A DNA stretch of 45,787 nt from Oscillospiraceae bacterium (GTDB taxonomy: Bacteria > Bacillota > Clostridia > Oscillospirales > UBA929), in assembly GCA_031546715.1 (NCBI GenBank), contig JAVBKA010000047.1:1-45787 (forward strand). The letters are read 5' to 3'. The notes beneath the pieces are model-generated. The model saw only the letters and a list, made by a program, of their open reading frames with translations. It was not told the DNA's origin and made no database searches. The first letter of the stretch is position 1, and every line of letters begins with the position of its first letter. Shown here piece by piece: positions 3,032 through 32,118 of this stretch. The translations under genes and the position numbers were made by a program.

Positions 3032-3052
3032 GTGTCACGAAAAAAAGGGCAA

Positions 3053-3169: not shown

Positions 3170-3194
3170 TTAACTATATTTAACTATATTTAAC
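3170..3194 (+). repeat. AT-rich 10-bp repeats, putative DNA-unwinding element
   Basis: TTAACTATAT x2.5, about 50 bp downstream of the iterons, flanked by inverted GGTGTCAC/GTGACACC boxes. Confidence 0.65.
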
Positions 3195-3274
3195 CGAACG
3201 TGACAGGCGTGACACCCTGTTCACACGTGCTATAATAAAATAAAATTTTATGATTTTCTTGCACGGAGGGCTGT

Positions 3275-6077: not shown

Positions 6078-6093
6078 AATTTTATTACTCCAG

Positions 6094-6136
6094 AGTGATA
6101 TTCCAGAACAACCAAGAGTTGTTCTGGAATATCACT
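6094..6136. repeat. Perfect 19-bp inverted repeat next to the RBS of the sialyltransferase-like gene
   Basis: AGTGATATTCCAGAACAAC-CAAGA-GTTGTTCTGGAATATCACT; no U-tract on the + strand. Confidence 0.8.
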
Positions 6137-6153
6137 TGTGGAGGTATGTTACA

Positions 6154-9911: not shown

Positions 9912-11083
9912 AAAGTCTCCTCAAACTTGATATCATAAAATTGTTTTTTAAGTTCTATTTTACTATTAAACAAAAACTCCTTAATCGTACAAACAATGCG
10001 TTCGGATGTATTCCCTCGTTGATACGGACTGACTGTATTTATTGATTTTTTAATAAATTCATCGGACAGCGCCGTATTCATTGCCGAAACAATATTGTTA
10101 CAATAAGGAATGCAATTTATAATACTGTTCGCCTGTAGTCTTCCTTTTTGGCGATCTCCAATATTAACTGTCGGAATCCCCAAGATTGGGGCTTCAATAA
10201 TGCCACTTGACGAATTACCAATAACCATGCATGAATGTTTCACAAGGCTTAAATATCTTGTTAGTCCTAATGACTGAAAGGCAACGCAGTTATCTCGAGT
10301 AGCTACAAACTCATCAATTTTTGTGTTAATAATCCTGCTGTTGGTATCTGAATTGCTTTTTGTAAAAACAAATTTTAATTGTGGAAACAAATCCAGCGCC
10401 GTCAATAGTTCTGTTATTTGTTCTTCTGCAGAATTATTTTCCATCGTGACAGGATGAAATGTGACGCTTGCATAATGTTCACCTAAGTCAAAATGGAGCG
10501 ATGTTTCGAGGTCAATTTTGTTTAACAGGTTTGCATTTTCGATAGCTTCTACGCCAACATCACCAAAGTTAAAAACTCTGTCTGGAGACTCACCCAGTTG
10601 AATAACTCTTTTCCTATATTGCTCGCAACCTACAAAATGAAGTTGGCTCATTTTAGTTATACTATGGCGAAAGCACTCATCAATTGCGCCCTCGGTAGTT
10701 TCTCCACCCGATATATGAGCAATTGGTATCCGCAAATTTAGTGCACAACAACAAATTGGAATTAACTCGTAACGGTCACCTAATACTAGTATCATATCTG
10801 GTGCATGACGATATAACACGTCTGCAAAGCTTATAAAGGCAACGCCCATTGTTTTTGAAACAGACGAGGGGTTGTCTCCATTCATAAGTATATCTACTTT
10901 TTCAGCAATTGGAATATTATCATTTACAATTTCGTCCACAGTAAAACCAAAGTCATGAGATAAATGAGTTCCTGTCGCAATAAGGCAGAGTTCGAGCTCT
11001 GCATGAGAATGGATTTTTTGTATTACCCCTTTTAATAAACCATACTCCGCTCTTGTAGCGGTCACAACGCATATTTTCATCAA
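9908..11083 (-). CDS. neuC: Hydrolysing NDP-sugar 2-epimerase (NeuC/LegG)
   Basis: TATRAEYG, LGDRYE, HISGGE, GNSSSG, GDRQKGR. Confidence 0.95.
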   Translation of the reverse strand: MMKICVVTATRAEYGLLKGVIQKIHSHAELELCLIATGTHLSHDFGFTVDEIVNDNIPIAEKVDILMNGDNPSSVSKTMGVAFISFADVLYRHAPDMILVLGDRYELIPICCCALNLRIPIAHISGGETTEGAIDECFRHSITKMSQLHFVGCEQYRKRVIQLGESPDRVFNFGDVGVEAIENANLLNKIDLETSLHFDLGEHYASVTFHPVTMENNSAEEQITELLTALDLFPQLKFVFTKSNSDTNSRIINTKIDEFVATRDNCVAFQSLGLTRYLSLVKHSCMVIGNSSSGIIEAPILGIPTVNIGDRQKGRLQANSIINCIPYCNNIVSAMNTALSDEFIKKSINTVSPYQRGNTSERIVCTIKEFLFNSKIELKKQFYDIKFEETL

Positions 11084-12075
11084 AGTTCTATCAACTCATC
11101 TTCTACAAAATCTCTTGTAGCGGCAGTTCCAATAACTTCATACCACGTCATTGGCGAAATACCGTTTCCGGGACGCTTTGCTGCAATATTTTCTTCGGTA
11201 AGGACTTCGCCTTTAGCAATATCTTTTTTAGCTACAATGCTCTTTCTTGCAATATCAATATTTTTCTTTTCGGAACTACTCGGAGCTTTTACACCGTTTC
11301 CCATTGCCTGTTCGATGTTGCGAATAGCGCGTACCATGCTTGTCAACTCGTACGGCTCAAGGCTTGCTCGATGGTCAGGACCTTCCATGTTTTTATCTAG
11401 AGTAAAATGTTTTTCAATAACGGTCGCACCCATAGCGACAGCTGCAATTGGGATTTCAATGCCAACAGTATGGTCGGAGTAGCCCACCTGTAAATTAAAC
11501 TCGTTTTTTAATGTCATCATAGCACGAAGATTTACATCACACATAGGCGTCGGGTATTCAGTATTGCAGTGAAGAAGTGTAATCTCTCCTGCTCCGCCCG
11601 TCTTGAGTATTTTCACAGCCTCTCGAATTTCGTGAAGCTCACACATGCCCGTGGACAGAATAATATCCTTGCCAGTGTTTGCAATTTTCAACAAATACGG
11701 AAGGTTTGTAATTTCCCCTGATGGTATTTTCCAAAAAGGGATATCTATACTTTGTAAGAAGTCAATGCTGTCTAAATCAAATGGAGTTGATAGAAAGAGT
11801 ATATCTTTTGAGTGGCAGTATTCCTTGATCACTCGAAAGTCTTGAAATGAGAGTTCAAGTTTCTTAACCATATCAAACTGGCTTTCGTTTTCTCCTGCAA
11901 TTTTCTGATATTCTGCCTTGGGAGCAATTTTTGAAATAATGTTTTCAGTAATAAACGTTTGAAATTTTACACAATCTGCATTAGCTGATTGTGCAGCGTC
12001 AACAAGCCGAAATGCAAGTTCCACGTCGCCGTTATGGTTGTCTCCTGCTTCAGCTATTATAAAAATTTTTTTCAC
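11080..12075 (-). CDS. neuB: Nonulosonic acid synthase (NeuB/LegI)
   Basis: IIAEAGDNHNG, VKFQTF, KIPSGE, GYSDHT, IEKHFT, C-terminal SAF domain. Confidence 0.95.
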   Translation of the reverse strand: MKKIFIIAEAGDNHNGDVELAFRLVDAAQSANADCVKFQTFITENIISKIAPKAEYQKIAGENESQFDMVKKLELSFQDFRVIKEYCHSKDILFLSTPFDLDSIDFLQSIDIPFWKIPSGEITNLPYLLKIANTGKDIILSTGMCELHEIREAVKILKTGGAGEITLLHCNTEYPTPMCDVNLRAMMTLKNEFNLQVGYSDHTVGIEIPIAAVAMGATVIEKHFTLDKNMEGPDHRASLEPYELTSMVRAIRNIEQAMGNGVKAPSSSEKKNIDIARKSIVAKKDIAKGEVLTEENIAAKRPGNGISPMTWYEVIGTAATRDFVEDELIEL

Positions 12076-12077
12076 AG

Positions 12078-13142
12078 CTACCCCCTATATGCTATCATCA
12101 GTTTATCTTCGCAAAATGATTCGTCTGTTTGCCTTCGTATTTCGACTAAATAATCAAATTCTTTTCTCATAAAAATATTAGCTCCAATGTAAAAACTTTT
12201 TGCACCAAGCTTATTGAATTGTTTCTTAAATTCAAGCAAACTGTCAACAGCCTTAACTCCACCGCCAAGATGCAATTTATTTGCTCCTAGACTGCATGCT
12301 AAAGTAGCGGCTTCGTGTAGCAATAGATTGCTTGGCGCAAGGTGACGAAACTCTGTGAGTGTACCTGAGAGATGATAGTGCATACTTTTTGGGCTAATAA
12401 AAAAAAGTGCTGACGCTACCGGGTCTTCTTTATATATGGCATATAAAAAAACCAAATCCACCGACATTTTTTCTATCAAATGTCGATAATATTTATCCGA
12501 AAAGTAGTAATAGTCGCTAGCGTGGTTCTTTTTCATTGAGCTTTCATAAATTCTTATAAAATCATCAAGTCGCTCGCCCTTGTCTAATATTATTTTTACT
12601 CCATTATTTATTGCTTTTCTAATCATGTTACGGTTTTTGCCCTCGATATTCTTGTGTATAGTTTCAATCGAAGATGTATCAATATACACAGTTTGCTTGT
12701 GATAGTGTACATCGCAAAAACCGTCAAAAACCGCATAATTATCAAGTAGGGGATGAAATCTAATAAACTGCGATACTATTGCGTTTTGTACGCAATACTC
12801 GTTCAATTCGCTAATAAAAACGGATATGTCATCTTTTGAGTAGCTTCCCTCTGTCAAGGGTCCCCCATAGCCATATGGCGTAGAACAATCAAAATATTGT
12901 CCTTTCTTGAGAATCGAAGTAAATTGTGATGAATCTGCAATATCGCTGACCATAAGAACGTAGCACATCCGAAAGGCATTCCTTTGAAAGTACATAAGAA
13001 CCGCACGCCCATCGCCATGTATTTCCAAAGACTGCGCATATTCTATGGTGTAGTATACATCCCAACTGCTAAACGATTTAACAATGGAATTCCATTTTTC
13101 AGTATTGAGTGCCGATATTACTTCCAACAAATTCACTCCCAA
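12078..13142 (-). CDS. FemAB-like / double-GNAT acyltransferase
   Basis: TPYGYGGP, FIRFHP, YHLSG, LHLGGG, LLEFKKQF. Confidence 0.75.
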   Translation of the reverse strand: MGVNLLEVISALNTEKWNSIVKSFSSWDVYYTIEYAQSLEIHGDGRAVLMYFQRNAFRMCYVLMVSDIADSSQFTSILKKGQYFDCSTPYGYGGPLTEGSYSKDDISVFISELNEYCVQNAIVSQFIRFHPLLDNYAVFDGFCDVHYHKQTVYIDTSSIETIHKNIEGKNRNMIRKAINNGVKIILDKGERLDDFIRIYESSMKKNHASDYYYFSDKYYRHLIEKMSVDLVFLYAIYKEDPVASALFFISPKSMHYHLSGTLTEFRHLAPSNLLLHEAATLACSLGANKLHLGGGVKAVDSLLEFKKQFNKLGAKSFYIGANIFMRKEFDYLVEIRRQTDESFCEDKLMIAYRG

Positions 13143-14173
13143 AATTTACCAACAATCTCTGCCAAGTACTCCATTTCGTATTCCGAATATCGTTGGTCTA
13201 TTGGTAGAGATAGTATATGTGATGAAATTTCAACTGCGTTAAAATTGATCTCAAGAACAGTGCCTATTACCGGCCAATGAACAGCGCAGTATATCTGATT
13301 ATCTATTAGATGTTTTCTAAAATCGTCACGCTTTTCAACAAAAACCGGCAGCGAAAAAGGACAAAAACCAGTTATATCTTTGAGTATAATTGGAGTAAGC
13401 TGTCGAGGTAGTCGCGCGTATAGGGTTTGAAAGTTTTTTTTCCTTTTCCTTTTAATATCCGAAATGTCATAACAAGAGAGTAGAAATCTTGAAAAGTCAG
13501 AAATCAATTTAGGGCATTGCATTTCGTCCAATATATGTTCTGAGGCAACAAAAAGCTTTCTATAAACCTCATTACAGTCAAGTATGTTCCGCAATTTCAA
13601 ATTTTTGAGCACCATAGCGGACGTTTTATCTGCAATATTAGTATTTTGTACATATGACATTTGCACAATGTCGATTTTTTTTTTGCTGTATAATACTCCA
13701 CCGTCTGGAACACGAAACCACTTTCTTAAGCTTGCAATACAAAAATCTCCCACAGAATGAATTTGCGTAAATATACTGTGGGTTGTATCTTCAATGACAA
13801 CAATCCCCATAGTCCTTAATCTTTCAAGTTCAATGATAGTTTCTTCGCGTTGCAAAATACCAAAATAATTAACCAGAAAAACAGCCTTTGTTTGACTAGT
13901 TATTTTGCCAATCAAACTTTGAATTGAGAGTCTAAAATCTGCATCAATTGTATAAAAATTGACAGAATGAATCGAAAACCCATTTATTACTGACGCACAA
14001 ATATAGTCGGGTAACAAAATTTCTCCTGGAGGAAGCATTCTATCCAAAAGCATAATTGCACTGCGTCCGCTGTCAGTAAAAACACAATTATACCCATTCA
14101 GAAATTTGAATATATTGTCCTCACTCTCTTGAAGAGTATCAAGATTTAAGTCAAATTCACTGCCAATTTCCAT
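13133..14173 (-). CDS. Divergent DegT/DnrJ-like PLP-dependent enzyme
   Basis: SGRSAI, VNYFG, IEDTTH, SLRKWF..PDGG, LSLPIDQRY. GGAGG RBS supports ATG 14173. Confidence 0.75.
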   Translation of the reverse strand: MEIGSEFDLNLDTLQESEDNIFKFLNGYNCVFTDSGRSAIMLLDRMLPPGEILLPDYICASVINGFSIHSVNFYTIDADFRLSIQSLIGKITSQTKAVFLVNYFGILQREETIIELERLRTMGIVVIEDTTHSIFTQIHSVGDFCIASLRKWFRVPDGGVLYSKKKIDIVQMSYVQNTNIADKTSAMVLKNLKLRNILDCNEVYRKLFVASEHILDEMQCPKLISDFSRFLLSCYDISDIKRKRKKNFQTLYARLPRQLTPIILKDITGFCPFSLPVFVEKRDDFRKHLIDNQIYCAVHWPVIGTVLEINFNAVEISSHILSLPIDQRYSEYEMEYLAEIVGKFWE

Positions 14174-14177
14174 TTGA

Positions 14178-14702
14178 TTAACCTCCATTAAATTTTTCTT
14201 CACAAACTAGACATAAAGAATATCGAAACTGTCTAATTTCCCGATTTAATGACTGAATGAAAGCTGTTCTATAATTGAGTTCTTTTACAAAACCATTGGC
14301 AAGCAAAATTTTTTCAGCCCTATGGTTATCTTCCCTAACATATGCGAAAGCGCACCTAGCCCCTTGCTTCCTTAAAATATTAATTGCTTCTGCGTACGCA
14401 TTTTGACCGATTTGTCGACCAGCAAATTCAGACAAAACAGCTATAGATAGTTCAACCTCGTCTTGCTGGCATGGATCCATATATAAATATCCAACTCGTT
14501 CTTTCCCAAAAAGAACAATGTACACTTTTCGTGATTCTGCCCTGTTAGAGTTAGCAATCCAATTAATGAATGTCACCTTTAGTTTTTCGTAGACTGGCTT
14601 ATTCAAATATCCCGTCCAATAAATGTTAACATCCTCTGATTTGATTTTGTAAAACAAATCAAAATCGTTATCATGTGCCAAACGTAGACTAACCATAAAC
14701 AC
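14178..14702 (-). CDS. GNAT-family N-acetyltransferase
   Basis: AGRQIG acetyl-CoA motif, N..AEK....NGF; about 172-174 aa. Confidence 0.8.
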   Translation of the reverse strand: MFMVSLRLAHDNDFDLFYKIKSEDVNIYWTGYLNKPVYEKLKVTFINWIANSNRAESRKVYIVLFGKERVGYLYMDPCQQDEVELSIAVLSEFAGRQIGQNAYAEAINILRKQGARCAFAYVREDNHRAEKILLANGFVKELNYRTAFIQSLNREIRQFRYSLCLVCEEKFNGG

Positions 14703-15741
14703 CCAACACCTTCATACGCATTCTTTCTAACTCCTCTGGTTGTCCCATGTCGTACCATTTGTCTTCGGATACTGGATAAATCCCCACATTTTCACCCAAG
14801 TCAATACACTTCTGAATAATATCTGTTATGTGAATAAATGTATCTTTCGGAATAAAGTCAAAAAAACGAGGCTCAATTACATAGAATCCGGCGTTTGTTA
14901 AAAATGAAAAAGTTGGTTTTTCTTTAAGCGCAATAATTTTACCTTGTTCGTTAATGTCAACCGTTCCATATGGAAACACCGATTGTTTTGTTACACAAAC
15001 CATGGTTAAAATATTATTTTCTTGTTTATGATGATTGTAAATATCTTCATAATCATTATAAACCATAATGTCACAATTAGTCATAAAAAAAGTTGAGAAA
15101 ATCTTTTGGTCTAAAAGTTTAAGTCCGCCTCCAGTTCCGAGAGGCTTGTCCTCGTCAAGAAAGTCGACTTTGCACCGTTGGCTTTCTTCCGAAAAGTATG
15201 CCTTAATCATATTCTTTTTATAGTTGACAATCAGAGTAAAAACATCACAGCCACATTTGATAAATTCGTTCATAATATGCTCTGTAATTGTATCATCTCC
15301 AATGGGAATTAGCGGTTTGGGTAACACTTTTGTGTATGGGTATAAGCGTGTACCCATGCCGCCTGCCATGATGACAACAGGGAGGTTTAAGTTTTTTATT
15401 GCAGACTTTACAGTTTTATTTGGGAAAAGAATCTCAACAAGCTGCATTTTATCATCCACAACTGGAAATGCTCGAAGTGTCGTATCGCTAAAGGCGGTTT
15501 TATTGCTATATTTGTCACTGGGTTTTTTAATATATTTAACGTCAAAATTAGCGGCAAGTATGGCAGGCGCAGTAAGACTTTGGTTTTTTAAAATGTAACG
15601 TCTTATATCGCCATCAGTAAGAGAGGCTAATAGCACATTCCCCCGACAGACAAATACGATACCTTCTGCGTTTCGGTTTATAATCCCCATGGCGTCAATA
15701 ATCGTCGTGTTTTCGGTAATTTGATATGGCGTTACGTCCAT
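14689..15741 (-). CDS. CBS-domain nucleotidyltransferase (PtmE/LegX-like)
   Basis: N-terminal CBS pair (LTDGDIRR), MAGGMGTRL.P.T...PKPL, PLGTGG, TNCD. Confidence 0.85.
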   Translation of the reverse strand: MDVTPYQITENTTIIDAMGIINRNAEGIVFVCRGNVLLASLTDGDIRRYILKNQSLTAPAILAANFDVKYIKKPSDKYSNKTAFSDTTLRAFPVVDDKMQLVEILFPNKTVKSAIKNLNLPVVIMAGGMGTRLYPYTKVLPKPLIPIGDDTITEHIMNEFIKCGCDVFTLIVNYKKNMIKAYFSEESQRCKVDFLDEDKPLGTGGGLKLLDQKIFSTFFMTNCDIMVYNDYEDIYNHHKQENNILTMVCVTKQSVFPYGTVDINEQGKIIALKEKPTFSFLTNAGFYVIEPRFFDFIPKDTFIHITDIIQKCIDLGENVGIYPVSEDKWYDMGQPEELERMRMKVLGVYG

Positions 15742-15776
15742 GGCTAGCCTACCTTTTTAAAAAGTTTTTAATTGTG

Positions 15777-16757
15777 CTAAATATTGTAAATATCGCTTTT
15801 ATATTTATCTAAATTGTCTTTTAACCACTCAATTGTCTGAGAAATACCGTCTTCGAATGAGACTTTAGGTTTCCAGTTTGTCAGTGCCATAATCTTCTTA
15901 TTGCACCCAAGAAGGCGTTCAACCTCACTCTTTTCAGGTCTAAGGCGCTGTTCATCGCAAATAATTCTTGCGTTTGGGTTAATCTGTCTAATAAGTTCCA
16001 AAGCAAGCTTCTCAATTGAAATTTCTTGCCCAGTGGCAATATTTATTTCTTCCCCAATAGTTTTGTGCGACTTGGCAATTGCCATAAACCCTGAAACAGT
16101 GTCCTTGACATAATTAAAATCTCGTGTTGGAGTAAGTGAGCCTAGTTTTAGTTCAGCTTTTCCTGCAAGTAGTTGCATAATTATTGTGGGAATAACCGCC
16201 CTTGCCGACTGTCTTGGCCCATAGGTATTAAACGGACGAACTATAGAAACAGGTAGCATAAAGCTTCGGTAGAAACTTTCCGCAAGCCTGTCCGCACCAA
16301 TTTTTGTTGCAGAATATGGCGATTGCCCTTGAAAAGGATGCTTCTCGTCAATCGGAATATACTGTGCTGTTCCGTAAACCTCAGAAGTAGATGTAACAAG
16401 CACTCGGATAGTGTCTAAATCTCTTGCCGCTTGTAAAACATTTAAAGTACCTTTAATATTCGTGTCCACATACGAATCTGGCGAGTGATAACTAAACGGA
16501 ATTGCAATCAAAGCTGCTAGGTGATAAACAACACTAGTATCGTGCATTGCCTTTCGAACACCATTCGGGTCACGAATGTCGCCAGAAAAGACTTCAATTT
16601 CATTTTTTATTTCTGGCTTAAGTGTGTCAAGCCAACCCCAAGAATTAAATGAGTTGTAATGCACAAATGCTTTTACTTTTTCTCCACTTCTTACAAGTTC
16701 TTCGGTTAAGTGACTGCCGATAAACCCATCTGCGCCAGTTACTAGAATTTTGTCCAT
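15777..16757 (-). CDS. legB: NDP-GlcNAc 4,6-dehydratase LegB
   Basis: TGADGFIGSH, YNSFNSWGWLD, LAALIAIPFSY, QGQSPYSATK, RLRPEKSEVERL. Confidence 0.9.
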   Translation of the reverse strand: MDKILVTGADGFIGSHLTEELVRSGEKVKAFVHYNSFNSWGWLDTLKPEIKNEIEVFSGDIRDPNGVRKAMHDTSVVYHLAALIAIPFSYHSPDSYVDTNIKGTLNVLQAARDLDTIRVLVTSTSEVYGTAQYIPIDEKHPFQGQSPYSATKIGADRLAESFYRSFMLPVSIVRPFNTYGPRQSARAVIPTIIMQLLAGKAELKLGSLTPTRDFNYVKDTVSGFMAIAKSHKTIGEEINIATGQEISIEKLALELIRQINPNARIICDEQRLRPEKSEVERLLGCNKKIMALTNWKPKVSFEDGISQTIEWLKDNLDKYKSDIYNI

Positions 16758-16823
16758 TTGTGCTTCTCCTTTTTGATTTTCTACAATCCCGTAAATACAC
16801 GTATAAGTTTGTTCCTACCGACA

Positions 16824-16852
16824 ACTATAACAGCATTTTTGATATTTTACAA
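16824..16852 (-). promoter_or_regulatory. Sigma-A-like promoter for the leg operon
   Basis: Minus strand TTGTAA-N17-TATAGT with extended TG. Confidence 0.5.
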
Positions 16853-17120
16853 GTCGTTTGTATGGCTTGTTATTTATTTCCTGTGGAATGACTATCCTTA
16901 AGCAAAACCCCTGTATTTTCTTTGCATCGTTTTAAATATAAAATCTACAGTAATAATAATTTATTTACTATTTACACACTCAAATCTTTATATAGTATGT
17001 CTGCTTTTCTGAGATTAATGTCAATGTTAAAATATGTGGGAATGTGTACTCTAAGGCAGAGTGGGTGCGAGATTTTTTTATGACAATTTTATATATTTTT
17101 AGAGATTAGCAAGATATGTA

Positions 17121-17149
17121 TTGTCTTTTCTCTCCGAATGGAGTATATT
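17121..17149 (+). promoter_or_regulatory. Sigma-A-like promoter for operon C
   Basis: TTGTCT-N17-TATATT, 55 nt upstream of ATG 17205. Confidence 0.45.
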
Positions 17150-17204
17150 AATAGGAAAATGTAATGAAAATTAGTACTATAACGTTGTGTACTACTGAGA
17201 GGTT

Positions 17205-17930
17205 ATGTGGAAAACAATGAATAATTTATACCGCATACCATTTTCTATAAAACAGCGTCTATTAGAGTTTTTTTGGAGTAGTAGCCCAACAAGAACAAGG
17301 GTATATACCTTGCATAAACTACACGGCGGAGGGGTTACTAATGCCGATCCTTTAAATTCAGTTGATGTTACTCTATTTAAGGCATTTATTGAGAAACATG
17401 CTATTAGCTCGATTCTTAGTATTCTGGACAATCTTAAAGACAAGAGTTTTTCGGATAATTCGGCAATAACATTTGATGATTGTTTTGATTCCGTGTATAC
17501 CCTTGCGTGGCCTTTGTTGTTGGAGAAGCAAATTCCCTTTACAATATTTGTATGCGTTGAGTTTTTAGGTAAAGAGGGATATTTATCAGAAACTCAAATT
17601 AGAGAAATGCTTAGTAGTGGGTTGTGTACTTTAGGATCTCACGGTATGCAACATAAAATTTACCGTAAGATGCACAAATCAGAGGTCATAGCGCAATACA
17701 AGGACTCAAAAAAAACGCTCGAGGCAATGTTCGGAGTAAATATAGGTTTGTTCGCCTACCCGTATGGATCCGTATACGCCGTGTCTGAATGCAATCAAAG
17801 AACAATAAAAAATTCAGGTTATATTGCCGCATTTGGCACCTTGCGGGCAGGACTTAGCGCAATATCTGCCAAAAATGCTTTTTATCTACCTAGATTCCAT
17901 GTAAATGATAATACAATAGTTATGTTCTGA
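17205..17930 (+). CDS. Polysaccharide deacetylase (CE4/NodB)
   Basis: ITFDD, GSHGMQH, FAYPYG, LPRF. Confidence 0.88.
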   Translation: MWKTMNNLYRIPFSIKQRLLEFFWSSSPTRTRVYTLHKLHGGGVTNADPLNSVDVTLFKAFIEKHAISSILSILDNLKDKSFSDNSAITFDDCFDSVYTLAWPLLLEKQIPFTIFVCVEFLGKEGYLSETQIREMLSSGLCTLGSHGMQHKIYRKMHKSEVIAQYKDSKKTLEAMFGVNIGLFAYPYGSVYAVSECNQRTIKNSGYIAAFGTLRAGLSAISAKNAFYLPRFHVNDNTIVMF

Positions 17931-17942
17931 GGTGATTTAACC

Positions 17943-18905
17943 ATGGCTTACACAGTAAGTGTTGTTATACCAATTTACAACGCAGAAAAGTATATAGAAA
18001 ACTGTATTCTTTCAGTAGCGCGTCAAACATATAAAAACTTTGAAGTTATCATTGTAAATGATGGCAGCCCCGACAGAGCCGCAGATATTGCCGAGCATAT
18101 CTTGAAAGAAACATCAATTAATTATAAGCGAATTGATAAACCAAATGGAGGTCAAGCTTCTGCAAGAAATGCTGGAATTAGAATTGCGACCGGCGAATTC
18201 TTGGTCTCAATTGATGCTGATGACTGCATATGGGAAACGTTTCTGTTTGAAATGGTAGAAGTTATGTCAAAATTTCCCACAGAAATAGCATTTGCAGATT
18301 TTCAAAATACAAGCCCTAGTAAACCGTTAGAAAACCCGTTATATGATAAAGGCGTTTTTGCACTGGACAGAGAACAGGCTATCAGGCAATTTTTAACCCG
18401 CTCTCTTCTTCCTGTTGCAGCTGGATTGTTTATTAAGCGCTCGTTTTTGCACAAGTATAACCTATATTTTCGAGACGACGCTTTGTTTGGGGAAGATACA
18501 TTGTGGGTTTGGGATGTTATGCTTGCAGCAAGCGGTGTGGTACATGTCCGCAAGCCATTATACAATTATGTACATCATGGCGAGTCTATAATGACTTCGT
18601 CCAATTACGATAGGGTGAAGCAGGGGTACTTTGCATTTGCTCGTCAAAAAGAAAAATGGGTTGAGGCATACCCTAGCGATCAACAATTCATTTCGTTGAT
18701 TTTGCCTCGTTTTGCTCTGGGAATAATACATGCCGCATGTAAATTGCTTAACGAGAAAGATTTCTTAACACTGTGCGAGGACATAGCATATCGCAAGCAC
18801 TGCCATTCCCTATTAATGTTTCCCAAAATAAAAATAAAAATTGCCTCTATTGCTCTACTCTTTAGCAAAAAGTTGTTTTATATTTTTATCAGAAAAGGTG
18901 CATAA
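17943..18905 (+). CDS. Glycosyltransferase family 2
   Basis: SVVIPIYN, VNDGSPD, ARNAG, DADD, GED. Confidence 0.92.
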   Translation: MAYTVSVVIPIYNAEKYIENCILSVARQTYKNFEVIIVNDGSPDRAADIAEHILKETSINYKRIDKPNGGQASARNAGIRIATGEFLVSIDADDCIWETFLFEMVEVMSKFPTEIAFADFQNTSPSKPLENPLYDKGVFALDREQAIRQFLTRSLLPVAAGLFIKRSFLHKYNLYFRDDALFGEDTLWVWDVMLAASGVVHVRKPLYNYVHHGESIMTSSNYDRVKQGYFAFARQKEKWVEAYPSDQQFISLILPRFALGIIHAACKLLNEKDFLTLCEDIAYRKHCHSLLMFPKIKIKIASIALLFSKKLFYIFIRKGA

Positions 18906-20038
18906 TGAGAATAGTTAAATTATCAATGAGCTACATGCAGAGTATGATATATCAGGAAAATTTACTTTGCAAAGCGTTGGCAGAAGACGGACATGAGGTT
19001 ATAGTAATTGCGCCAAATACTCTGCACAGAATATACAAAAAAATAGAATTCGATAAAGCATTATTGGAAACTCCAGATACTATGGATGGACGTGTTCGAA
19101 TTATTAGGCGACCTATAAAGATGTACACACGATATTTTTATACAATTCCTGCGTTGTATAAATTGCTGGAAGACATAAAGCCGGACATTCTTTTTGTTCA
19201 TAGCAATCAACAGGTGCCACTCCTTGTTGCAACTAGGTACGCAAAAAAACACAAAAATATGACTTTTTATGTTGATAATCATGCAGAATTTTGTAACACA
19301 GCGCAAAATTATTTATCTAAAGAGATCCTTCACAAAGTTATATATAAAGCAATTATACATCACGCATATTCACGTTTGGATAGAATTTTTTATGTATCAG
19401 AAGAAGCAAAAGAATTACTCATAGACCTATACAAACTCCCCGCGACCAAAATGGAGTTTTATCCAGTGGGCGGAAACATAATTGATGGTGAAGCCCGTGC
19501 GAAAAACCGCTTGGAGAAACGCAGAGAACTAAATCTTGCTGACGATGACATTTTAATTTGCATTACCGGTAAGCTGGACGCAGGCAAGAAAACGCTGCTA
19601 GCGTTGACTGCATTTTCAAAAGTAAAATCTGACAAGCTAAAGCTTGTTATAATTGGTACGTTCTCAGACGATATAAAAGAAGCCGCGCTTGACGCAATCG
19701 GAAACGACAACCGAATCCAGTTTATAGGCTGGAAAAAGGGCGATGAACTCTTGAAATATCTCTGTGCCGCCGATTTATACGTCCAGCCTGGCAATGAATC
19801 GGCAACTTTGGAAAATGCAATCTGTTGCGGAGTTCCCGTTATGGTGCGCCGTTCCAAAAATTACGAAATGTTGTTGAATGGAAATCACTGGTTTATTGAT
19901 ACGATGGAGGATATGATAGCAGTCCTGCATGAAATCTGTGCGGATGCATCTGTTCTTGAGGCAAAAAGCGAAGCTAGTTATAAGCTTGCGTATGAAATTC
20001 TTGACTACAGGATTCTGGCAAGGCGACTTTACCATTAG
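18905..20038 (+). CDS. Glycosyltransferase family 4
   Basis: GT-B layout; GKLDAGK, ADLYVQPG, ENAICCGVP. Confidence 0.85.
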   Translation: MRIVKLSMSYMQSMIYQENLLCKALAEDGHEVIVIAPNTLHRIYKKIEFDKALLETPDTMDGRVRIIRRPIKMYTRYFYTIPALYKLLEDIKPDILFVHSNQQVPLLVATRYAKKHKNMTFYVDNHAEFCNTAQNYLSKEILHKVIYKAIIHHAYSRLDRIFYVSEEAKELLIDLYKLPATKMEFYPVGGNIIDGEARAKNRLEKRRELNLADDDILICITGKLDAGKKTLLALTAFSKVKSDKLKLVIIGTFSDDIKEAALDAIGNDNRIQFIGWKKGDELLKYLCAADLYVQPGNESATLENAICCGVPVMVRRSKNYEMLLNGNHWFIDTMEDMIAVLHEICADASVLEAKSEASYKLAYEILDYRILARRLYH

Positions 20039-20053
20039 AAAGCAGGTTGTTTT

Positions 20054-21184
20054 ATGGAATTTATTGACTTAAATGCGCAATATGTCGCATTGAAGAACGA
20101 TATTGATGAAGGCATTCGCAACGTTTTGACACATGGTCAATTTATTCTGGGACCAGAAGTGGAGCGATTAGAGGCTGAAATTTCTGCTTTTATTGGCGTA
20201 AAACACACTATAACCTGTGCCAACGGAACCGACGCATTACAGCTACTTTATATGGAGTACGGTGTCGGTTCTGGTGATGCGGTGTTTGCTCCTGATGTTA
20301 CATTTATAGCAACAGTTGAACCTGCTGCCATGCTAGGCGCAACACCTGTGTTCTGTGATATCTCCATCGAAACCTTTAATATATGCCCGAAAAGCCTTGA
20401 AAGACAAATTAGTGCGGTGTTACAAGAGGGGAAACTAAAGCCAAGGGCCGTGGTTACAGTTGATTTCATTGGTAATCCTGCTCAATATGATGAAATTGCA
20501 GAAATATGCAAAAAATACGGTCTTTTGTTGATTGAAGATGCTGCACAAAGTTTTGGTGCAATGTATGGCAATAAACGCTGTGGTGCACTCGGAGATGCGG
20601 CAACTACATCATTTTTTCCCGCAAAGCCACTAGGCTGCTATGGTGACGGCGGTGCTATTTTTACAAATGATGATGATGTCGCATACAGGCTTCGCTCCAT
20701 GCGTGCGCATGGCAAGGGCAAAAGCAAATACGACAATGTTCGTGTAGGCGTAAACTCACGGTTGGACACACTGCAAGCTGCTATTTTGCTTCCTAAGCTT
20801 GCGGCTCTTAGAAATTATGAAATTGATGCAAGGCAAGAAATTGCAGCCCGTTATAACAACGCTTTTAAAGGAAAATTTCAACTTCAACGTGTTTTACAAG
20901 GAAATGTTAGTACATGGGCGCAATACGCTCTTTTGGCAAAGAGTACAGAAAATCGTGATTTCATTTTATCAAAACTCGCCAACCATGGCATACCGTCGCT
21001 TGTGTATTATCCAACGCCGCAGCACGCTCTCCCTGTTTTTAGGGATACATGCGCCTATGGTGAAACTTTTAAACATTCTTCCGATTACTGTGCAAGGACA
21101 TTTTCACTGCCAATGCACCCATATTTGAGTGAAGTAGAGCAGGACAAAGTTATTTCCGCAGTTTTGGCTTGCGCCAATGGTTGA
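20054..21184 (+). CDS. DegT/DnrJ aminotransferase, WbpE/WlbC-like
   Basis: MEFIDL, ANGTDAL, EDAAQSFG, SFFPAKPLGCYGDGG, NSRLDTLQAA. Confidence 0.9.
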   Translation: MEFIDLNAQYVALKNDIDEGIRNVLTHGQFILGPEVERLEAEISAFIGVKHTITCANGTDALQLLYMEYGVGSGDAVFAPDVTFIATVEPAAMLGATPVFCDISIETFNICPKSLERQISAVLQEGKLKPRAVVTVDFIGNPAQYDEIAEICKKYGLLLIEDAAQSFGAMYGNKRCGALGDAATTSFFPAKPLGCYGDGGAIFTNDDDVAYRLRSMRAHGKGKSKYDNVRVGVNSRLDTLQAAILLPKLAALRNYEIDARQEIAARYNNAFKGKFQLQRVLQGNVSTWAQYALLAKSTENRDFILSKLANHGIPSLVYYPTPQHALPVFRDTCAYGETFKHSSDYCARTFSLPMHPYLSEVEQDKVISAVLACANG

Positions 21185-22139
21185 GTATGGGGGATACCTT
21201 CCTCTTGAATTACCTCGAGGAGAAGAGTTTTACAGTGGTCAATCTGGTGTTTTGCGCGTAAATTCGGGAAGAACGGCGTTGTACTGTGCTTTAAGACAAG
21301 CACGACCTGCGAAAATTTACTTTCCATACTATATGTGTAAGAGTGTGCAACCTGTTGTTGAATGCTTGGGCATAGAAACCTCATATTATTGCTTGGACAA
21401 TGATTTATCTCCTCTAAATATTTCAGCTAGAGGCAATGAAATGGTGTATTGGTGCAACTATTTTGGTACATCAAGCATTAAATCAATTGACAAAGTTGTG
21501 AAAACTTACGAATCTCTTATAATTGATAATGCACACGCTTTCTTTTCTTCACCAGTGCCGAGTGCTTATAATATATATTCGTGCAGAAAATTTTTTGGAG
21601 TGGCAGATGGTGCGTATTTAATTGGCGACTGTGTTAAAGATGAGCCAATTCCTGAAGGGTTTTCTTTCAATAGAATGCAGCATCTTACCAAAAGTCTTGA
21701 ATGCGGGACAAACGTGGCGTATCCTGAGTATCAAGAAAGCGAAGCCTCTCTGGATGGATGCTTTACAAAAATGTCAAAAATTACGCAACTACTCTTGCAG
21801 GCTGTACCTTACTCAAGTATAGTAAGTATAAGGAACGCAAATTTTGATGTTTTGCATAAAAAACTTAGAGAATACAACGAGATATGCTTTGAAACTCAAC
21901 CTAATGCGCCAATTTGTTACCCTTTACTTGTTACAGATAAAGGACTACGAGAGCATTTACTACAAAATCATGTATATGTGTCAACGTGGTGGAGACATGT
22001 CTCCACCGCCACGGGCAACAACTCAATAGAAGCAATACTTTCTGACTTTTTGATTCCCTTGCCGATTGATCAAAGGTACGATGGGAACGACATGCAAATA
22101 ATTGCCAATTTTGTTTTGGACTATTTAAATAAGCTGTAG
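21177..22139 (+). CDS. Divergent DegT/DnrJ-like PLP-dependent enzyme
   Basis: SGRTAL, NYFG, IDNAHAF, SCRKFFGVADG, LPIDQRY; same family as 13133-14173. Confidence 0.75.
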   Translation: MVEYGGYLPLELPRGEEFYSGQSGVLRVNSGRTALYCALRQARPAKIYFPYYMCKSVQPVVECLGIETSYYCLDNDLSPLNISARGNEMVYWCNYFGTSSIKSIDKVVKTYESLIIDNAHAFFSSPVPSAYNIYSCRKFFGVADGAYLIGDCVKDEPIPEGFSFNRMQHLTKSLECGTNVAYPEYQESEASLDGCFTKMSKITQLLLQAVPYSSIVSIRNANFDVLHKKLREYNEICFETQPNAPICYPLLVTDKGLREHLLQNHVYVSTWWRHVSTATGNNSIEAILSDFLIPLPIDQRYDGNDMQIIANFVLDYLNKL

Positions 22140-22171
22140 ATTTATCTAAAATTGGTTTACAGGAGGACAAA

Positions 22172-22888
22172 ATGTTAAAGAAACTTGTTATAGCCGTTAC
22201 GCCTCTACGAGATAGGATTCGTTTAAACAAACTTATAGCTTTTGAAAAAAGAAACGGAATCGATATCAGTACACCTATTTATCAAGATCAACTGGAGCCA
22301 AGCTCGCAGAGAAGCCACCCATATGAAATCTCTCCTTGTGACAGACGCTTTGTTGGCCTTTTAAAGTGTTTGCCAATAACTAAACATGATGGAGTTTTAG
22401 ATTACGGATGTGGAAAAGGCGGTCCTTTAATTGAGTTTTCAAAATTTCCTTTTGGCAAAGTAGGTGGTTTAGACCTTAGTCCAAAACTCTGTGCAATTGC
22501 GACAGCTAATATGAACAAAATGGGTATACCTGCACAAATAATTTGTAAAGATGCCGCAGAATTTACTGATTTAGATGATTTTAATTATTTTTATTTTTTT
22601 AATCCTTTTCCTGCTGTTGTTATGGATCAGGTAGTTGAAAATATACTTGAAAGTGCTAACCGAACAAAACGGCAAGTTGTTTTAATTTATTTTACCCCTC
22701 GGCAAACAGAAGCGGCAAAAAAACATCTTCATCTCGTAATGTCAATGATGTCAGGGAGGACAGGACACAATATTTACGAAGTATATTCTTCTAATCCGAA
22801 AATTTCGCTTAACAAAGACTTATATTTATCTTTGTTAGAGAAGTTGCGGTTGATTTCAATGAATATGGGCGGTAACTATGACAAATAA
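22172..22888 (+). CDS. Class I SAM-dependent methyltransferase
   Basis: LDYGCGKG motif I, DAAEF, YFFNPF. Confidence 0.85.
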   Translation: MLKKLVIAVTPLRDRIRLNKLIAFEKRNGIDISTPIYQDQLEPSSQRSHPYEISPCDRRFVGLLKCLPITKHDGVLDYGCGKGGPLIEFSKFPFGKVGGLDLSPKLCAIATANMNKMGIPAQIICKDAAEFTDLDDFNYFYFFNPFPAVVMDQVVENILESANRTKRQVVLIYFTPRQTEAAKKHLHLVMSMMSGRTGHNIYEVYSSNPKISLNKDLYLSLLEKLRLISMNMGGNYDK

Positions 22889-23846
22889 AGAAAAATTTAA
22901 TTTTTTTTGTAAAAAAACATATATTCCAATTTTTTCAAAGCCTTGGTGGCTTGATGCTGTTTGCGGTGCGGATAATTGGAATGTGTGGATCTATGAGGAT
23001 GGTGGTAACATGTATGCCGCCATGCCCTATTATATAGAAATGCGTGGTTCTCACAAATATATTACAAGGCCGCCACTGACTCAAAACAACGGTATAATTT
23101 TTTCCTATCCTTACGGTCAGAAATATCATAAAAAGCTAAGCATGGAGGACAAAATAATATCAGCGTCTTGTGAATTTATAGAAAGTCTTAATGTCGATGT
23201 GTACGAGCAGCAATTTCACTTTAGCTTTACAAATTGGCTCCCATTCTTTTGGCAGCGATATACATCAAGTACCAGGTACACATTTATAATTGACGACACC
23301 TCAAATTTAGAAAAGATTTTGGAAAATGTATCTGCAAACTACAGAAATGTAATTAAAAAAGCTCAAACTTCCTGCCAAATTCATATGGATATGCCCCCCC
23401 AAGACTACTACAAATATTATAATCTCGTTTTTAAGAAACAAAACTTAACCGCCCCCATTACACTTGAGTTTTTCCTAAAACTTTTTTCTGCATGCACACA
23501 GAACAATTCAGGCAAAACTTTCTTTTGCACAGATAGTAGCGGAGAGATTAGCAGTTCCTGCTTCCTCGTATGGGACGAGCAATCCGTATATCTGATGATG
23601 GGAGGCGCAAATCCTGAAATACAGAACACCGTTAGTTATGACTACTTGATATATGAAACCATTAAATTTGCTTCTGATAAAAATTTGCGTTATGATTTTG
23701 AGGGAAGTGTCATTCGTAGAATAAACAGGTCTTTTAGAGAATTTGGCGGAGAACAAAAGCCCTACTTTCGTATTCGCAAGGTTTTTAATCGTGATATAAT
23801 CTTAAAAGAAGCAAACGAATACGCCGACCAAATAGGAGCAAAATAA
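22878..23846 (+). CDS. FemAB-like / GNAT acyltransferase
   Basis: IFSKPWWLD, PPLTQ, YLMMG, YDFEGS, FREFGG. Confidence 0.78.
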   Translation: MTNKEKFNFFCKKTYIPIFSKPWWLDAVCGADNWNVWIYEDGGNMYAAMPYYIEMRGSHKYITRPPLTQNNGIIFSYPYGQKYHKKLSMEDKIISASCEFIESLNVDVYEQQFHFSFTNWLPFFWQRYTSSTRYTFIIDDTSNLEKILENVSANYRNVIKKAQTSCQIHMDMPPQDYYKYYNLVFKKQNLTAPITLEFFLKLFSACTQNNSGKTFFCTDSSGEISSSCFLVWDEQSVYLMMGGANPEIQNTVSYDYLIYETIKFASDKNLRYDFEGSVIRRINRSFREFGGEQKPYFRIRKVFNRDIILKEANEYADQIGAK

Positions 23847-23863: not shown

Positions 23864-25177
23864 ATGAGAATTTGCGTTATCGGGACCGGCTATGTGGGAC
23901 TAGTCACAGGGGCGTGTCTTGCAAATGTAGGACACACCGTATCTTGCGTTGATACTGATGAAAAAAAAGTGAACACCCTTCGTGCCGGTGAAGTGCCATT
24001 TTATGAACCAGGTCTTGCTGAGATTATTTCTCACAGTCTCAAAGAAAACAATATTTCTTTTTATACAAGTGTTGAATCACCTATCAAAACTGCTGAAATC
24101 TGCTTTATTGCTGTAGGTACACCGTCTGACGAAAACGGTCGTGCTGATATGAGCTATGTTAGACATGCGGCTCTTGATATCGGCAAGTATATGTGCAGTG
24201 ACTTGATTGTTATTAATAAATCAACCGTGCCTGTCGGCTCTCAGAAAATAGTAACTGAATGGATTTCTGAAGCTTTGCGCCAACGCTCTGTTAGCTATAA
24301 ATTAACAGTAGTTTCAAATCCTGAATTTTTAAAGGAAGGCTGTGCGGTTGACGATTTTAATCGTCCTGACCGTATAGTTATAGGCACTAATGATACTGAA
24401 GCTACGGAAAAAATCCGTGAAATGTATGCGCCTTTTAATCAAAAAAGAGACCGTATTATAGTTATGGACCCTGCCAGTGCAGAGCTTACAAAGTATGCTA
24501 GCAATGCAATGCTTGCAACTAGAATTTCTTTTATGAACGAAATTGCATTGTTATGCGAGCATGTGGGCGCAAATGTGAATTATGTACGGCAAGGCATGGG
24601 CGCTGATGAGCGTATTGGAAGTAGCTTTTTGTATGCAGGCTGTGGTTATGGCGGAAGCTGCTTTCCAAAGGACGTCTCGGCGCTGATTTCAATTAATGAG
24701 GATTTTGGACTATCTGCTCAAATTCTGTCAGCAGTTAAGAACGTTAACGATACTCAAAAACATGTTGTTGTATCAAAGGTAAAAAAACATTTTGGCAGCT
24801 TAGGCGGACTAAAATTTGCCGTTTGGGGGCTGTCCTTTAAGCCAAATACTGACGATATACGAGAAGCTCCTGCACTGACATTTATTGACGAAGTGACAAG
24901 TCAAGGCGCATCAGTTTGCGTTTTCTGTCCCAAGGGTACTGAAAATGCTGTTGATTATTTTCAAAAAAACAAAAGTGTCACCTTTGCGAAGCATAAATAT
25001 GATGCGCTAATTGGTGCTGACGCACTTGTGCTAATGACTGAATGGCCGGAGTTTCGCAATCCTGATTTTGATGAAATTGGCACACTTCTCAAACAAAAAG
25101 TTGTATTTGACGGAAGAAACATATATAATCGAAAAAGCCTAGAAAAATTAGGGTTTACAGTTTATCAGATAGGGTGA
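23864..25177 (+). CDS. ugd: UDP-glucose 6-dehydrogenase
   Basis: GTGYVGL, KSTVPVG, NPEFLKEG, GYGGSCFPKD, FKPNTDDIRE. Confidence 0.93.
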   Translation: MRICVIGTGYVGLVTGACLANVGHTVSCVDTDEKKVNTLRAGEVPFYEPGLAEIISHSLKENNISFYTSVESPIKTAEICFIAVGTPSDENGRADMSYVRHAALDIGKYMCSDLIVINKSTVPVGSQKIVTEWISEALRQRSVSYKLTVVSNPEFLKEGCAVDDFNRPDRIVIGTNDTEATEKIREMYAPFNQKRDRIIVMDPASAELTKYASNAMLATRISFMNEIALLCEHVGANVNYVRQGMGADERIGSSFLYAGCGYGGSCFPKDVSALISINEDFGLSAQILSAVKNVNDTQKHVVVSKVKKHFGSLGGLKFAVWGLSFKPNTDDIREAPALTFIDEVTSQGASVCVFCPKGTENAVDYFQKNKSVTFAKHKYDALIGADALVLMTEWPEFRNPDFDEIGTLLKQKVVFDGRNIYNRKSLEKLGFTVYQIG

Positions 25178-25181
25178 TTGC

Positions 25182-26249
25182 TTGAAGTATGCATTAATAG
25201 GTACAGGCAGAATTGCAATAAATCATATAACCGCAGCTGCCCAAAACGGCTTAGAGCTTGTTGCACTATGCGACATAGTCCCCGAAAATATGACTGCGCT
25301 GCTAAGCAAGGCAAAATATCAGGGTAACCCGTCACTTTTTTCTGACTACAAGGCTCTTATTGACGAAATACATCCAGAATTTGTGGCGATTGCAACAGAT
25401 TCTGGCATTCATGCTGAAATAGGTCTTTATGCGCTGTCCCATGGTTGTCATGTTTTGATTGAGAAACCTATTGCCATGAGCATGGCAGATGCACAATCAC
25501 TTGTTGATGTGGCAGACAAGCACGGGAAAGTACTTGCCGCCTGTCATCAAAATAGATTTAATCCCTCTGTTCAAAGAATACGCAAAGCCATTGACGATGG
25601 GCGTTTTGGCAAGCTTTCACATATTGCCGCCCATGTCCGATGGAATCGTGGAGCGCAGTACTATGAGCAAGCGAGTTGGCGTGGAAAGTGGGCGTCTGAT
25701 GGCGGCTGCCTTATGAATCAGTGTATTCACAATGCTGACCTTATGCGCTGGTTCATGGGTGATATAGAAGAAGTGTTTGCCTATACAGCAAACACACAGC
25801 ATGATTACATTGAAGGCGAAGACATAGGTTTGGCACTGGTTAAGGGCGCAAACGGTGCGTATGGGCTATTTGAAGGCACCGTGAATGTGTTTCCCAAAAA
25901 CCTAGAAGAGACATTGTATGTCTTTGGCGACAAAGGCACAGTTAAAGCAGGCGGAACATCGGTGAATCTGATTGATGAATGGCTTTTTGCGGACGAGTTG
26001 GACACCGCAGACGCAGTCAAGACCGAATGTAACGAGCTGCCGCCCAATGTATACGGCTTTGGTCACACCAGACTGTATGCAGACGTGCTAGACGCCATTA
26101 AGACAGGCAGAAAGCCTCTGGTGGACGGTGTCGAGGGGATGAAGGCTCTGGAACTTATTTTGGCGATGTACAAGAGCAAAAAAACAGGGCAGCCGGTGCG
26201 GCTACCACTGGGAGATTTTGCTAGTGTGGATATGGTTGGGGTGTTGTAG
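25182..26249 (+). CDS. Gfo/Idh/MocA oxidoreductase, WbpB/WlbA-like NDP-uronate 3-dehydrogenase
   Basis: LIEKP, HQNRFN, WNR...YY...WRG.W..DGG.LMNQ.IH. Confidence 0.85.
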   Translation: MKYALIGTGRIAINHITAAAQNGLELVALCDIVPENMTALLSKAKYQGNPSLFSDYKALIDEIHPEFVAIATDSGIHAEIGLYALSHGCHVLIEKPIAMSMADAQSLVDVADKHGKVLAACHQNRFNPSVQRIRKAIDDGRFGKLSHIAAHVRWNRGAQYYEQASWRGKWASDGGCLMNQCIHNADLMRWFMGDIEEVFAYTANTQHDYIEGEDIGLALVKGANGAYGLFEGTVNVFPKNLEETLYVFGDKGTVKAGGTSVNLIDEWLFADELDTADAVKTECNELPPNVYGFGHTRLYADVLDAIKTGRKPLVDGVEGMKALELILAMYKSKKTGQPVRLPLGDFASVDMVGVL

Positions 26250-31112: not shown

Positions 31113-31152
31113 GTCATCAGCTACTTTCATTAGAACATTTAGATACAAACCA

Positions 31153-32088: not shown

Positions 32089-32118
32089 TGCTGCATCTTT
32101 CCTTTCACATTGCCTAAT

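Follow-up and report, generated by a model that had tools for sequence, protein, structure and literature searches.

A divergent DegT-fold protein family of surface-glycan loci: candidate epimerases of sugar-bound aminoacyl groups

That amino sugars of surface glycans can carry D-amino acids is well established chemically; for the E. coli O antigens a transferase (Lea3) has been named, and the available part of a review gives no enzyme for the D configuration (PMC7685785). The subject of this report is a family of divergent DegT-fold proteins, here called X, two members of which (X1 and X2) are encoded in separate glycan operons of a 45,787-nucleotide stretch of Oscillospiraceae DNA (UBA929 lineage; assembly GCA_031546715.1, contig JAVBKA010000047.1), referred to in its entirety as the window. 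Each stands in the company of a putative transferase (F1 and F2, respectively), and the two groups of genes are referred to as modules 1 and 2.

The described systems closest to module 1 make aminoacylated legionaminic acids. E. coli O161 carries D-alanyl on N7 of legionaminate (Leg5Ac7Ala; PMC10609480); lea3, described as an alanyltransferase gene, and weiE, to which no function is assigned in the part of the review available, precede lea6 (PMC7685785). A cluster of A. wodanis, as far as the accessible text describes it, has a "second aminotransferase" ahead of ptmE and resembles the V. vulnificus CMCP6 cluster for Leg5Ac7AcAla (PMC7371886). These systems, with their alanyl group on N7, have in common with module 1 an aminoacylated N7 (predicted here) and an extra gene ahead of the nucleotidyltransferase gene; homology of their genes to X1 and F1 is predicted, weiE and the A. 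wodanis "second aminotransferase" being the candidates for X1. (DNA searches with legB of the window or of Campylobacter did not find the leg clusters of E. coli O161, O108 and O61.) FemABX-like enzymes transfer from aminoacyl-tRNA, and Orf11 of BD-12 passes glycine from Gly-tRNA to an amino sugar (PMC12945691, seen in part), a precedent for tRNA-dependent N-aminoacylation of such an acceptor. F1 is like these enzymes in passing the Pfam FemAB test (60.6 bits; cut-off 24) and in matching S. aureus FemA (1LRZ, E 1.4e-6); it would differ from them in its acceptor, a nucleoside diphosphate (NDP)-sugar in surface-glycan synthesis, and F2 fails Pfam FemAB.

The X proteins themselves are most like the DegT/DnrJ/EryC1/StrS sugar aminotransferases (WecE, PseC, WbpE, LegC), with which they share the fold (Z 27, root-mean-square deviation ~3 Å), the pyridoxal phosphate (PLP)-binding Asp, Ser and Lys and a glycan-locus setting, X also being a predicted homodimer. 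They differ in low identity (14-18%), in G-R for G-T, Cys for a stacking aromatic residue and S-x-x-K with a two-residue deletion, in an LPIDQRY tail and a helical insert, in falling on the other side of a tree, and in being encoded, as a rule, in addition to a neighbouring canonical enzyme. Fold-type-I PLP enzymes include racemases and epimerases (isopenicillin N epimerase CefD, amino-caprolactam racemase, a side activity of MetC/MalY) that invert C-alpha by means of a Lys and a residue on the opposite face; the substrate carboxyl may be amidated, and the second base is thought to stand at the PLP-stacking position. X belongs to a different subfamily (Z ~20-21 for class I and V-type folds, 25-28 for sugar aminotransferases), and no DegT-fold epimerase turned up in the searches run.

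The reading favoured here, with a probability of roughly 0.6, is that X is a PLP-dependent epimerase, inverting C-alpha (L to D) of the amino acid in an N-aminoacyl NDP-amino sugar, a small GNAT protein (14178-14702) capping the amine. The genes of module 1, all on the minus strand, are the following; F1, X1, F2 and X2 lie where an earlier note on this DNA had placed them.

9219-16757, minus strand: legionaminate-type operon in the order legB, ptmE, [small GNAT, X1, F1], legI, legG, legF (NCBIfam/Pfam).
15777-16757, minus strand: legB (NCBIfam LegB).
14178-14702, minus strand: small GNAT acetyltransferase, predicted amine cap and third part of module 1 (Pfam Acetyltransf_1/3).
13133-14173, minus strand: X1, divergent DegT-fold PLP protein (Pfam DegT, 32.2 bits, cut-off 19.8; AF2 model; conserved residues).
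12078-13142, minus strand: F1, FemAB-like, putatively double-GNAT protein, predicted aminoacyl transferase (Pfam FemAB, FemA match).

From the observed genes, motifs, fold, neighbourhoods, exclusion of LegH and D/L correlation, we infer the chemical steps, the donor and the identity of the amino acid. LegB and a LegC-like enzyme encoded elsewhere would make the 4-amino sugar; F1, in place of LegH, would move an L-amino acid onto that amine, probably from aminoacyl-tRNA; X1 would form a PLP aldimine with the free alpha-amine of the residue and invert C-alpha at a two-base site formed by Lys156 and, on the opposite face, Cys64 as the second acid/base; acetylation of the amine by the small GNAT would follow, and LegG, LegI and LegF would carry the product to CMP-Leg5Ac7(N-acetyl-D-aminoacyl), which is of the Leg5Ac7AcAla type. 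The D residue would be made after transfer because tRNA carries L residues, and inversion would precede capping because PLP needs a free amine. Binding of NDP-sugars by the DegT fold would suit a sugar-bound aminoacyl substrate. For module 2, which is less certain, an equivalent series of reactions is proposed on a C3-amino sugar: F2 would be the transferase, and the cap may be a methyl group.

The leg operon of the window is recognizable by its LegB, NeuB_NnaB and NeuC_NnaA proteins, which exceed NCBIfam cut-offs, and by a Pfam-assigned CMP-synthetase; LegB, PtmE, LegG, LegI and LegF of the legionaminic acid pathway are all present. Neither legC nor legH is found in the operon, and there is no NeuD-like gene anywhere in the window. 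A LegC-like gene (361 bits; cut-off 420) lies on another contig (C78) of the window's genome (G000), which is 91.6% complete. Absence of the acetyltransferase is a regular companion of X1. In an even sample of the class (401 genomes drawn evenly, 399 scored), four of the 25 legB loci have X1 and F1 and no NeuD/LegH, and the other 21 have NeuD/LegH and no X (Fisher p 8e-5, a value that is overstated because related genomes are not independent). The NeuD/LegH profile was trained on 18 of these 21 loci, and all eight proteins tested pass TIGR03570. Both states occur within one genus (genomes G301 and G123), and a NeuD/LegH-like gene is found in none of 80 X1 loci from metagenomes. The same swap is seen in a bacillosamine-type locus of a Priestia plasmid, which has GNAT, X and FemAB-like genes and no annotated PglD-type gene. 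The proposal of the earlier note that N-aminoacylation followed by PLP chemistry replaces ordinary N-acetylation is thus supported, X1+F1 and NeuD/LegH excluding each other in 25 of 25 legB loci.

What kind of PLP chemistry this might be is suggested by four E. coli O-antigen loci whose serogroups were typed by their RefSeq wzx/wzy names, not by analysis of the strains, and whose structures are taken from the accessible portions of two papers (PMC7685785, PMC10609480). O121 has an N-acetylglycyl group, O123/O186 3-hydroxybutanoyl-D-alanyl on Qui4N, O114 N-acetyl-L-seryl and O63 N-acetyl-D-allo-threonyl (PMC7685785, PMC10609480). The O121 locus holds vioA, WbqC and GNAT genes and no X gene; the O123/O186 locus holds vioA, a WbqC gene (38% identical to that of O121), an X2-type gene (E 3.5e-87), GNAT and MaoC. 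In the second pair, the O114 locus has a small GNAT gene, a FemAB-like gene and qdtB and no X gene, and that of O63 combines fdtB and an acyltransferase gene with a FemAB-like gene (30% identity to that of O114) and an extra gene for a 315-residue DegT-like protein with SGR and S-x-x-K. D-allo-Thr differs from L-Thr at C-alpha only. X thus tracks the D configuration across two unrelated transferase types, since glycine needs no inversion and L-serine had none. No X gene is present in the other nine of the 13 E. coli loci scanned. Epimerisation is favoured over the other options that the earlier note had listed because the O123 and O63 residues keep both the amino group and the carboxyl linkage, in the D form; decarboxylation is ruled out by that linkage.

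The O123/O186 wfbA-wfbD and O63 clusters resemble the window modules in combining a transferase, an X-type gene and an N-acyl cap; they differ in the transferase, which is WbqC-type or of another FemAB-like subfamily, and in the sugars, Qui4N and 3-amino-3,6-dideoxyhexose. The O123 gene stands at the wfbB position and its product is 33% identical to X2; in the part of the review supplement available it is listed as wfbB by name alone, and the O63 gene as a second fdtB (PMC7685785). The O63 protein belongs to a subfamily, X3, in which S-x-x-K is found in 100 of 100 members and which aligns with X1 at 99.75% (E 2.6e-27) and with X2 at E 3e-10. X3 falls outside 27 canonical DegT rows (SH-aLRT 98), and FemAB-like neighbours occur in four of six X3 loci of a Bacteroidota-centred sample. 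PF27889 is precomputed on many X3 proteins and was not returned for the O63 protein in our Pfam scan. A Proteus locus (H63) has vioA-like, glycosyltransferase, WbqC, X2 and NAD epimerase genes; its X2 gene has no E. coli DNA match.

Association of X with amino-acid transferases is general. In the even sample X genes occur in 12 of 399 genomes (legB in 25), and each of the 16 has a FemAB-like (7), ATP-grasp (8) or WbqC (1) gene no more than 3.5 kb away, with the qualification that one of the eight ATP-grasp partners is weak at a contig edge and one FemAB-like locus has ATP-grasp as well. The fixed two-gene module that the earlier note had described is not supported, X pairing about as often with ATP-grasp or WbqC genes. 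Two further surveys, of 80 metagenome loci for X1 (its closest relatives, partly redundant) and 80 genome loci for X2, were made separately, since a mixed X1 and X2 alignment was too diverse for scanning loci; their counts describe neighbourhoods and are not a test against chance, because the partner profiles were built from those neighbourhoods. A FemAB-like gene lies within 6 kb of X1 in 75 of 80 loci (35 of 35 that are fully flanked, 20 of 20 after dereplication at 70%), and legI or legG is seen in 59. For X2 the partner is a FemAB-like gene in 40 loci, an ATP-grasp gene in 21 and a WbqC gene in 19; 66 loci have at least one candidate transferase. A small GNAT gene lies near X1 in 22 of 80 loci, and the GNAT of the window is 33-36% identical to an N-terminal domain fused to X1 in six relatives; the earlier note had missed this third part of the module. 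The predicted role of this protein is to cap the amine of the attached amino acid.

Four loci of Sporolactobacillus (L051, L055, L070, L076) have X2 with no operon partner, two of them (L051, L070) in a flagellar region. Some 20 Mucilaginibacter and Pedobacter loci (L017, L025, L030 and ~17 more) have a conserved block of PhyH-type dioxygenase, X2, small GNAT and FemAB-like genes ahead of a PglF-like dehydratase gene; the dioxygenase may hydroxylate the attached amino acid.

The best surviving alternative, which is nevertheless unlikely, is that X racemises a free amino acid, the D form of which is then attached by the neighbouring ligase or transferase. It, too, fits the D/L correlation; ATP-grasp enzymes, the partners in 21 of the 80 X2 loci, use free amino acids, and two conserved Arg residues of X could bind the alpha-carboxylate. 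On the other side, housekeeping racemases already supply free D-Ala, and the nearest folds are those of aminotransferases that bind NDP-sugars. Moreover, FemABX-type enzymes use aminoacyl-tRNA carrying L residues (PMC12945691, in the part available), so that loci with F1 need inversion after transfer.

In a somewhat less probable scheme, X would turn the attached amino acid into a 2-oxoacyl group by deamination or transamination, and a reductase encoded nearby would then form lactoyl- or glyceroyl-type groups from it. A candidate for this reductase exists: one NAD-dependent epimerase/reductase subfamily clusters solely beside X genes, with partners of all three transferase types (WbqC, ATP-grasp or F1 type), in 12 loci (L001:12968-13963, L071, L104, L105, L110, L120, L121, L130, L141, L150, L151, L209). 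Such a reductase is found neither in the window nor in its genome, the amino group is kept, in D form, in O123 and O63, and amine-capping GNATs go with X1 and are fused to it.

X1 and X2 are 26% identical across 323 residues (E 2e-21) and share SGR.A, NYFG, S.RK(W/F)F...DG and LPIDQRY. The contrast that the earlier note had drawn with the canonical SF...K motif holds family-wide: S-x-x-K is found in 114 of 114 X1 relatives and 120 of 120 X2 relatives, and in only one of 71 canonical DegT proteins of the same loci. The start of X1 is most likely ATG 14173, where the family has a conserved Met and GGAGG lies 8 nucleotides upstream. At E <=0.001 there are 634 relatives of X1 and 1,021 of X2, and a joint profile collects 3,833 clusters (50% identity, E <=1e-30). 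Pfam PF01041 gives X1 the marginal score listed above, has no match to X2 and gives 338 bits to the canonical neighbour of X2; NCBIfam has no curated name for the family, and four X, X1 and X3 relatives tested match no model at 1e-10. A tree of 57 rows, from a quick search only (the careful one being unfinished), places the 27 canonical rows on one side of a branch and all X-type rows on the other (SH-aLRT 98), several of the latter on long branches. Archaea contribute an X2 gene of an Asgard metagenome-assembled genome (L048), surrounded by leg genes and accompanied by GNAT and F1-type genes, and a gene on a Natronorubrum plasmid (L165). X1 genes split in two or shortened, apparently by frameshifts (G046:C34, which is L213, and L162 and L131), may be real breaks or assembly errors.

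The models of X1 (AF2) and X2 have pLDDT values of 94.9 and 95.8, respectively. The structure prediction that the earlier note had proposed for the PLP site places X1 in the sugar-aminotransferase fold (best Z 27.7, 2.9 Å over 298 residues, 18% identity); DegT-family folds fill the first 24 VIA-align rows (Z 23-28), Foldseek concurs, and other fold-type-I classes (class I, V-type) reach Z ~20-21. A homodimer of X1 is predicted (0.63, best control 0.00; runs agree in >=96% of contacts, pLDDT >=89) at a mark reached by 20 of 30 solved homodimers and one of 23 monomers, although resemblance to solved DegT dimers may explain the score. With X1 residues (R42, C64, D134, K156) in P0121 numbering, the invariant PLP Lys and Asp are K156 and D134 in X1 and K138 and D117 in X2, aligning with K191 and D162 of the canonical neighbour. 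Profile alignment to 68 canonical enzymes of the same loci finds the PLP Asp, Ser and Lys kept, the G-T phosphate motif changed to G-R, and two residues deleted before the Lys, which gives S-x-x-K for S-F-x-x-x-K. The PLP-stacking aromatic residue (F/Y in 68 of 68 canonical enzymes) is replaced by Cys in 114 of 114 X1 and 116 of 120 X2 proteins; the placement of this Cys at the stacking position comes from the alignment. To judge by sequence, the active site of X1 and X2 is a rebuilt one that retains the PLP lysine.

That X is simply a divergent sugar aminotransferase, replacing or backing up LegC or WbpE, is very improbable. The fold is the same, Lys and Asp are retained, databases and the E. 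coli review call members of the family DegT or fdtB, and legC is lacking from the leg operons of the window and of G301. In addition, X2 directly follows a WbpB-like gene in three Pseudobutyrivibrio loci (L015, L019, L024), and the genomes of the first two lack a close WbpE. Yet canonical aminotransferases stand beside X in many loci (in O123, O63 and Priestia, and in 14 of the 30 X1 loci that are fully flanked), and X is therefore usually not needed for sugar amination; this alternative also leaves the link to amino-acid transferases and the D configuration unexplained. The possibility that X1 is specifically the missing LegC of its operon is likewise unlikely: a LegC-like gene is on C78, G301 has its true legC ~50 kb away, and an adjacent legC is missing from some leg operons without X as well. 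The notion that X is an acyl relay or accessory subunit whose Cys carries the aminoacyl group or aids the transferase, with little PLP chemistry, draws on the invariance of that Cys, the tight gene coupling and the GNAT fusion, and is least probable of all, O121 and O114 attaching amino acids without X and the PLP Lys, Asp and Ser being invariant.

Returning to the proposal that X epimerises sugar-bound aminoacyl groups, a number of points weigh against it. The function is a prediction from sequence, model and gene context. The D/L contrast consists of four hand-picked serogroups, and the O63 gene represents a distant subfamily on a long branch, with moderate kinship to X1 and X2: X1 and X2 profiles score the O63 gene no better than, or just slightly over, canonical enzymes, the X3 profile scores X2 proteins below canonical ones, hhalign of X3 with the canonical family (99.94%) is as strong as with X1, and the Cys of X3 is two residues off the X1 position. 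A NeuD-like gene is present elsewhere in the window's genome (contig C169, 171 bits) and could acetylate in trans. Of 65 fully flanked X2 loci, 11 have no recognised transferase within 6 kb, and 16 of the 30 fully flanked X1 loci have no canonical aminotransferase within 10 kb; no close WbpE orthologue was found in the two Pseudobutyrivibrio genomes searched (L015, L019) that have WbpB-like and X2 genes; and the proposal does not account for the NAD-dependent epimerase/reductase subfamily confined to X loci.

The F1 and X1 pair of module 1 has a counterpart in module 2, the genes of which are on the plus strand.

20054-21184, plus strand: canonical WbpE-like sugar aminotransferase, directly upstream of X2 (Pfam DegT, 338 bits; canonical clade).
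21177-22139, plus strand: X2, second member of the X family (X1 alignment; no Pfam match).
22172-22888, plus strand: class I methyltransferase, between X2 and F2 (Pfam Methyltransf_25).
22878-23846, plus strand: F2, Acetyltransf_6/BioF2-like GNAT protein (Pfam Acetyltransf_6).
23864-26249, plus strand: TuaD/Ugd-type NDP-sugar dehydrogenase and WbpB-like Gfo/Idh/MocA oxidoreductase (Pfam/NCBIfam).

X2 sits directly behind the canonical aminotransferase, as the earlier note had it, its start overlapping the stop codon of that gene. The designation of this operon as a WbpE operon holds for its WbpE-like and WbpB-like genes; its dehydrogenase is TuaD/Ugd-type (TuaD 460 bits, TviB 48) and not TviB/WbpA-type, and a WbpD-like hexapeptide gene is absent from the window. 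In these two respects it departs from the Wbp pathway to 2,3-diacetamido-uronic acid. Dehydrogenase and oxidoreductase are the predicted source of a C3-keto sugar.

The view that one DegT-like plus FemAB-like module occurs twice is borne out for X1 and X2, which are of one family, and not for F1 and F2, which from their sequences are different, barely related subfamilies: their best local match covers just 55 residues (E 4e-4). F1 is predicted to transfer its aminoacyl group to the C4 amine (the future N7 of legionaminate) and has a C-terminal F-K-x-x-F motif, the Lys of which we take to be FemX K305; the motif is found in 48 of 58 F1 relatives and in none of the F2 set of four. F2, which lacks it, has a Pfam match to Acetyltransf_6 only, is below the FemAB test and has no PDB match; Atlas clusters of a relative of F2 are 10-21% FemAB. 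It may transfer an acyl or aminoacyl group to the C3-amino sugar. The pairing of X2 with F2 recurs in only three of the 80 X2 loci; together with a WbpB-like gene and the glycosyltransferase gene of 18905 the two are found in three Pseudobutyrivibrio loci. The methyltransferase has no homologue among the fetched neighbours and is, by a weak inference, a possible source of an N-methyl cap for module 2.

The glycan genes of the window form a cargo of ~33 kb between mobile-element genes. An inverted repeat of approximately 413 bp (4584-4996 and 38542-38943, 85% identical) encloses the whole of it, the left copy being the tail of a primase-helicase gene, and the flanks (329-4996 and 39249-45564) hold ParB-like, DnaG-DnaB fusion, MobV relaxase and ParA genes, which suggests that the locus is carried by a plasmid or integrated element. 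Downstream of the MobV region are palindromes of 61 bp (40498-40558) and 52 bp (40706-40757), both nearly perfect. Converging on the leg operon are two Gfo/Idh/MocA oxidoreductase genes (7232-9198), homologues of which adjoin GNAT-X1-F1 in two loci (L119, L128); the pair may epimerise a nonulosonate. Next to them, two open reading frames of 289 and 383 codons (5208-7287) have no Pfam match, the first having a weak glycosyltransferase-like NCBIfam match. CDP-3,6-dideoxyhexose genes (G1P cytidylyltransferase, CDP-glucose 4,6-dehydratase, RfbH/E1) and a split transketolase-like pair occupy 30336-37361, and their product is possibly a branched-chain sugar.

Legionaminates bearing aminoacyl groups have been described before, as has transfer to amino sugars by FemAB-like enzymes. 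What appears to be new is the assignment of C-alpha epimerisation to this DegT-fold family and of a transferase-X-cap cassette as the replacement of LegH or PglD; neither was met in the literature covered, which leaves out most subscription carbohydrate journals, and the accessible part of PMC9309667 holds no precedent. (An earlier proposal could exist in the primary papers on O123, O58, O63 and O161.) Extended to the whole family, the proposal has about even odds: thousands of bacterial and archaeal proteins now called "aminotransferase" or "hypothetical" would be epimerases of NDP-sugar-bound aminoacyl groups with a Lys/Cys two-base site. Working in a cassette of any of three unrelated amino-acid transferases, X and an optional cap, they would be a general source of D-Ala, D-allo-Thr and other D residues on the N-acyl groups of O antigens, capsules and flagellar nonulosonic acids.

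Should FemAB-like enzymes indeed take L residues from tRNA, an enzyme that inverts these is required, and the X family is a specific candidate for it; epimerisation would be a new reaction for the sugar-aminotransferase fold. If this is true, loci could be read by a simple rule, X1 and F1 in place of legH denoting N7-aminoacyl legionaminate and X denoting a D residue, so that the presence of X would predict the chirality of the residue from sequence alone. The family would then be re-annotated in 12 of the 399 genomes sampled from the class as well as in Bacteroidota, Proteobacteria and archaea.

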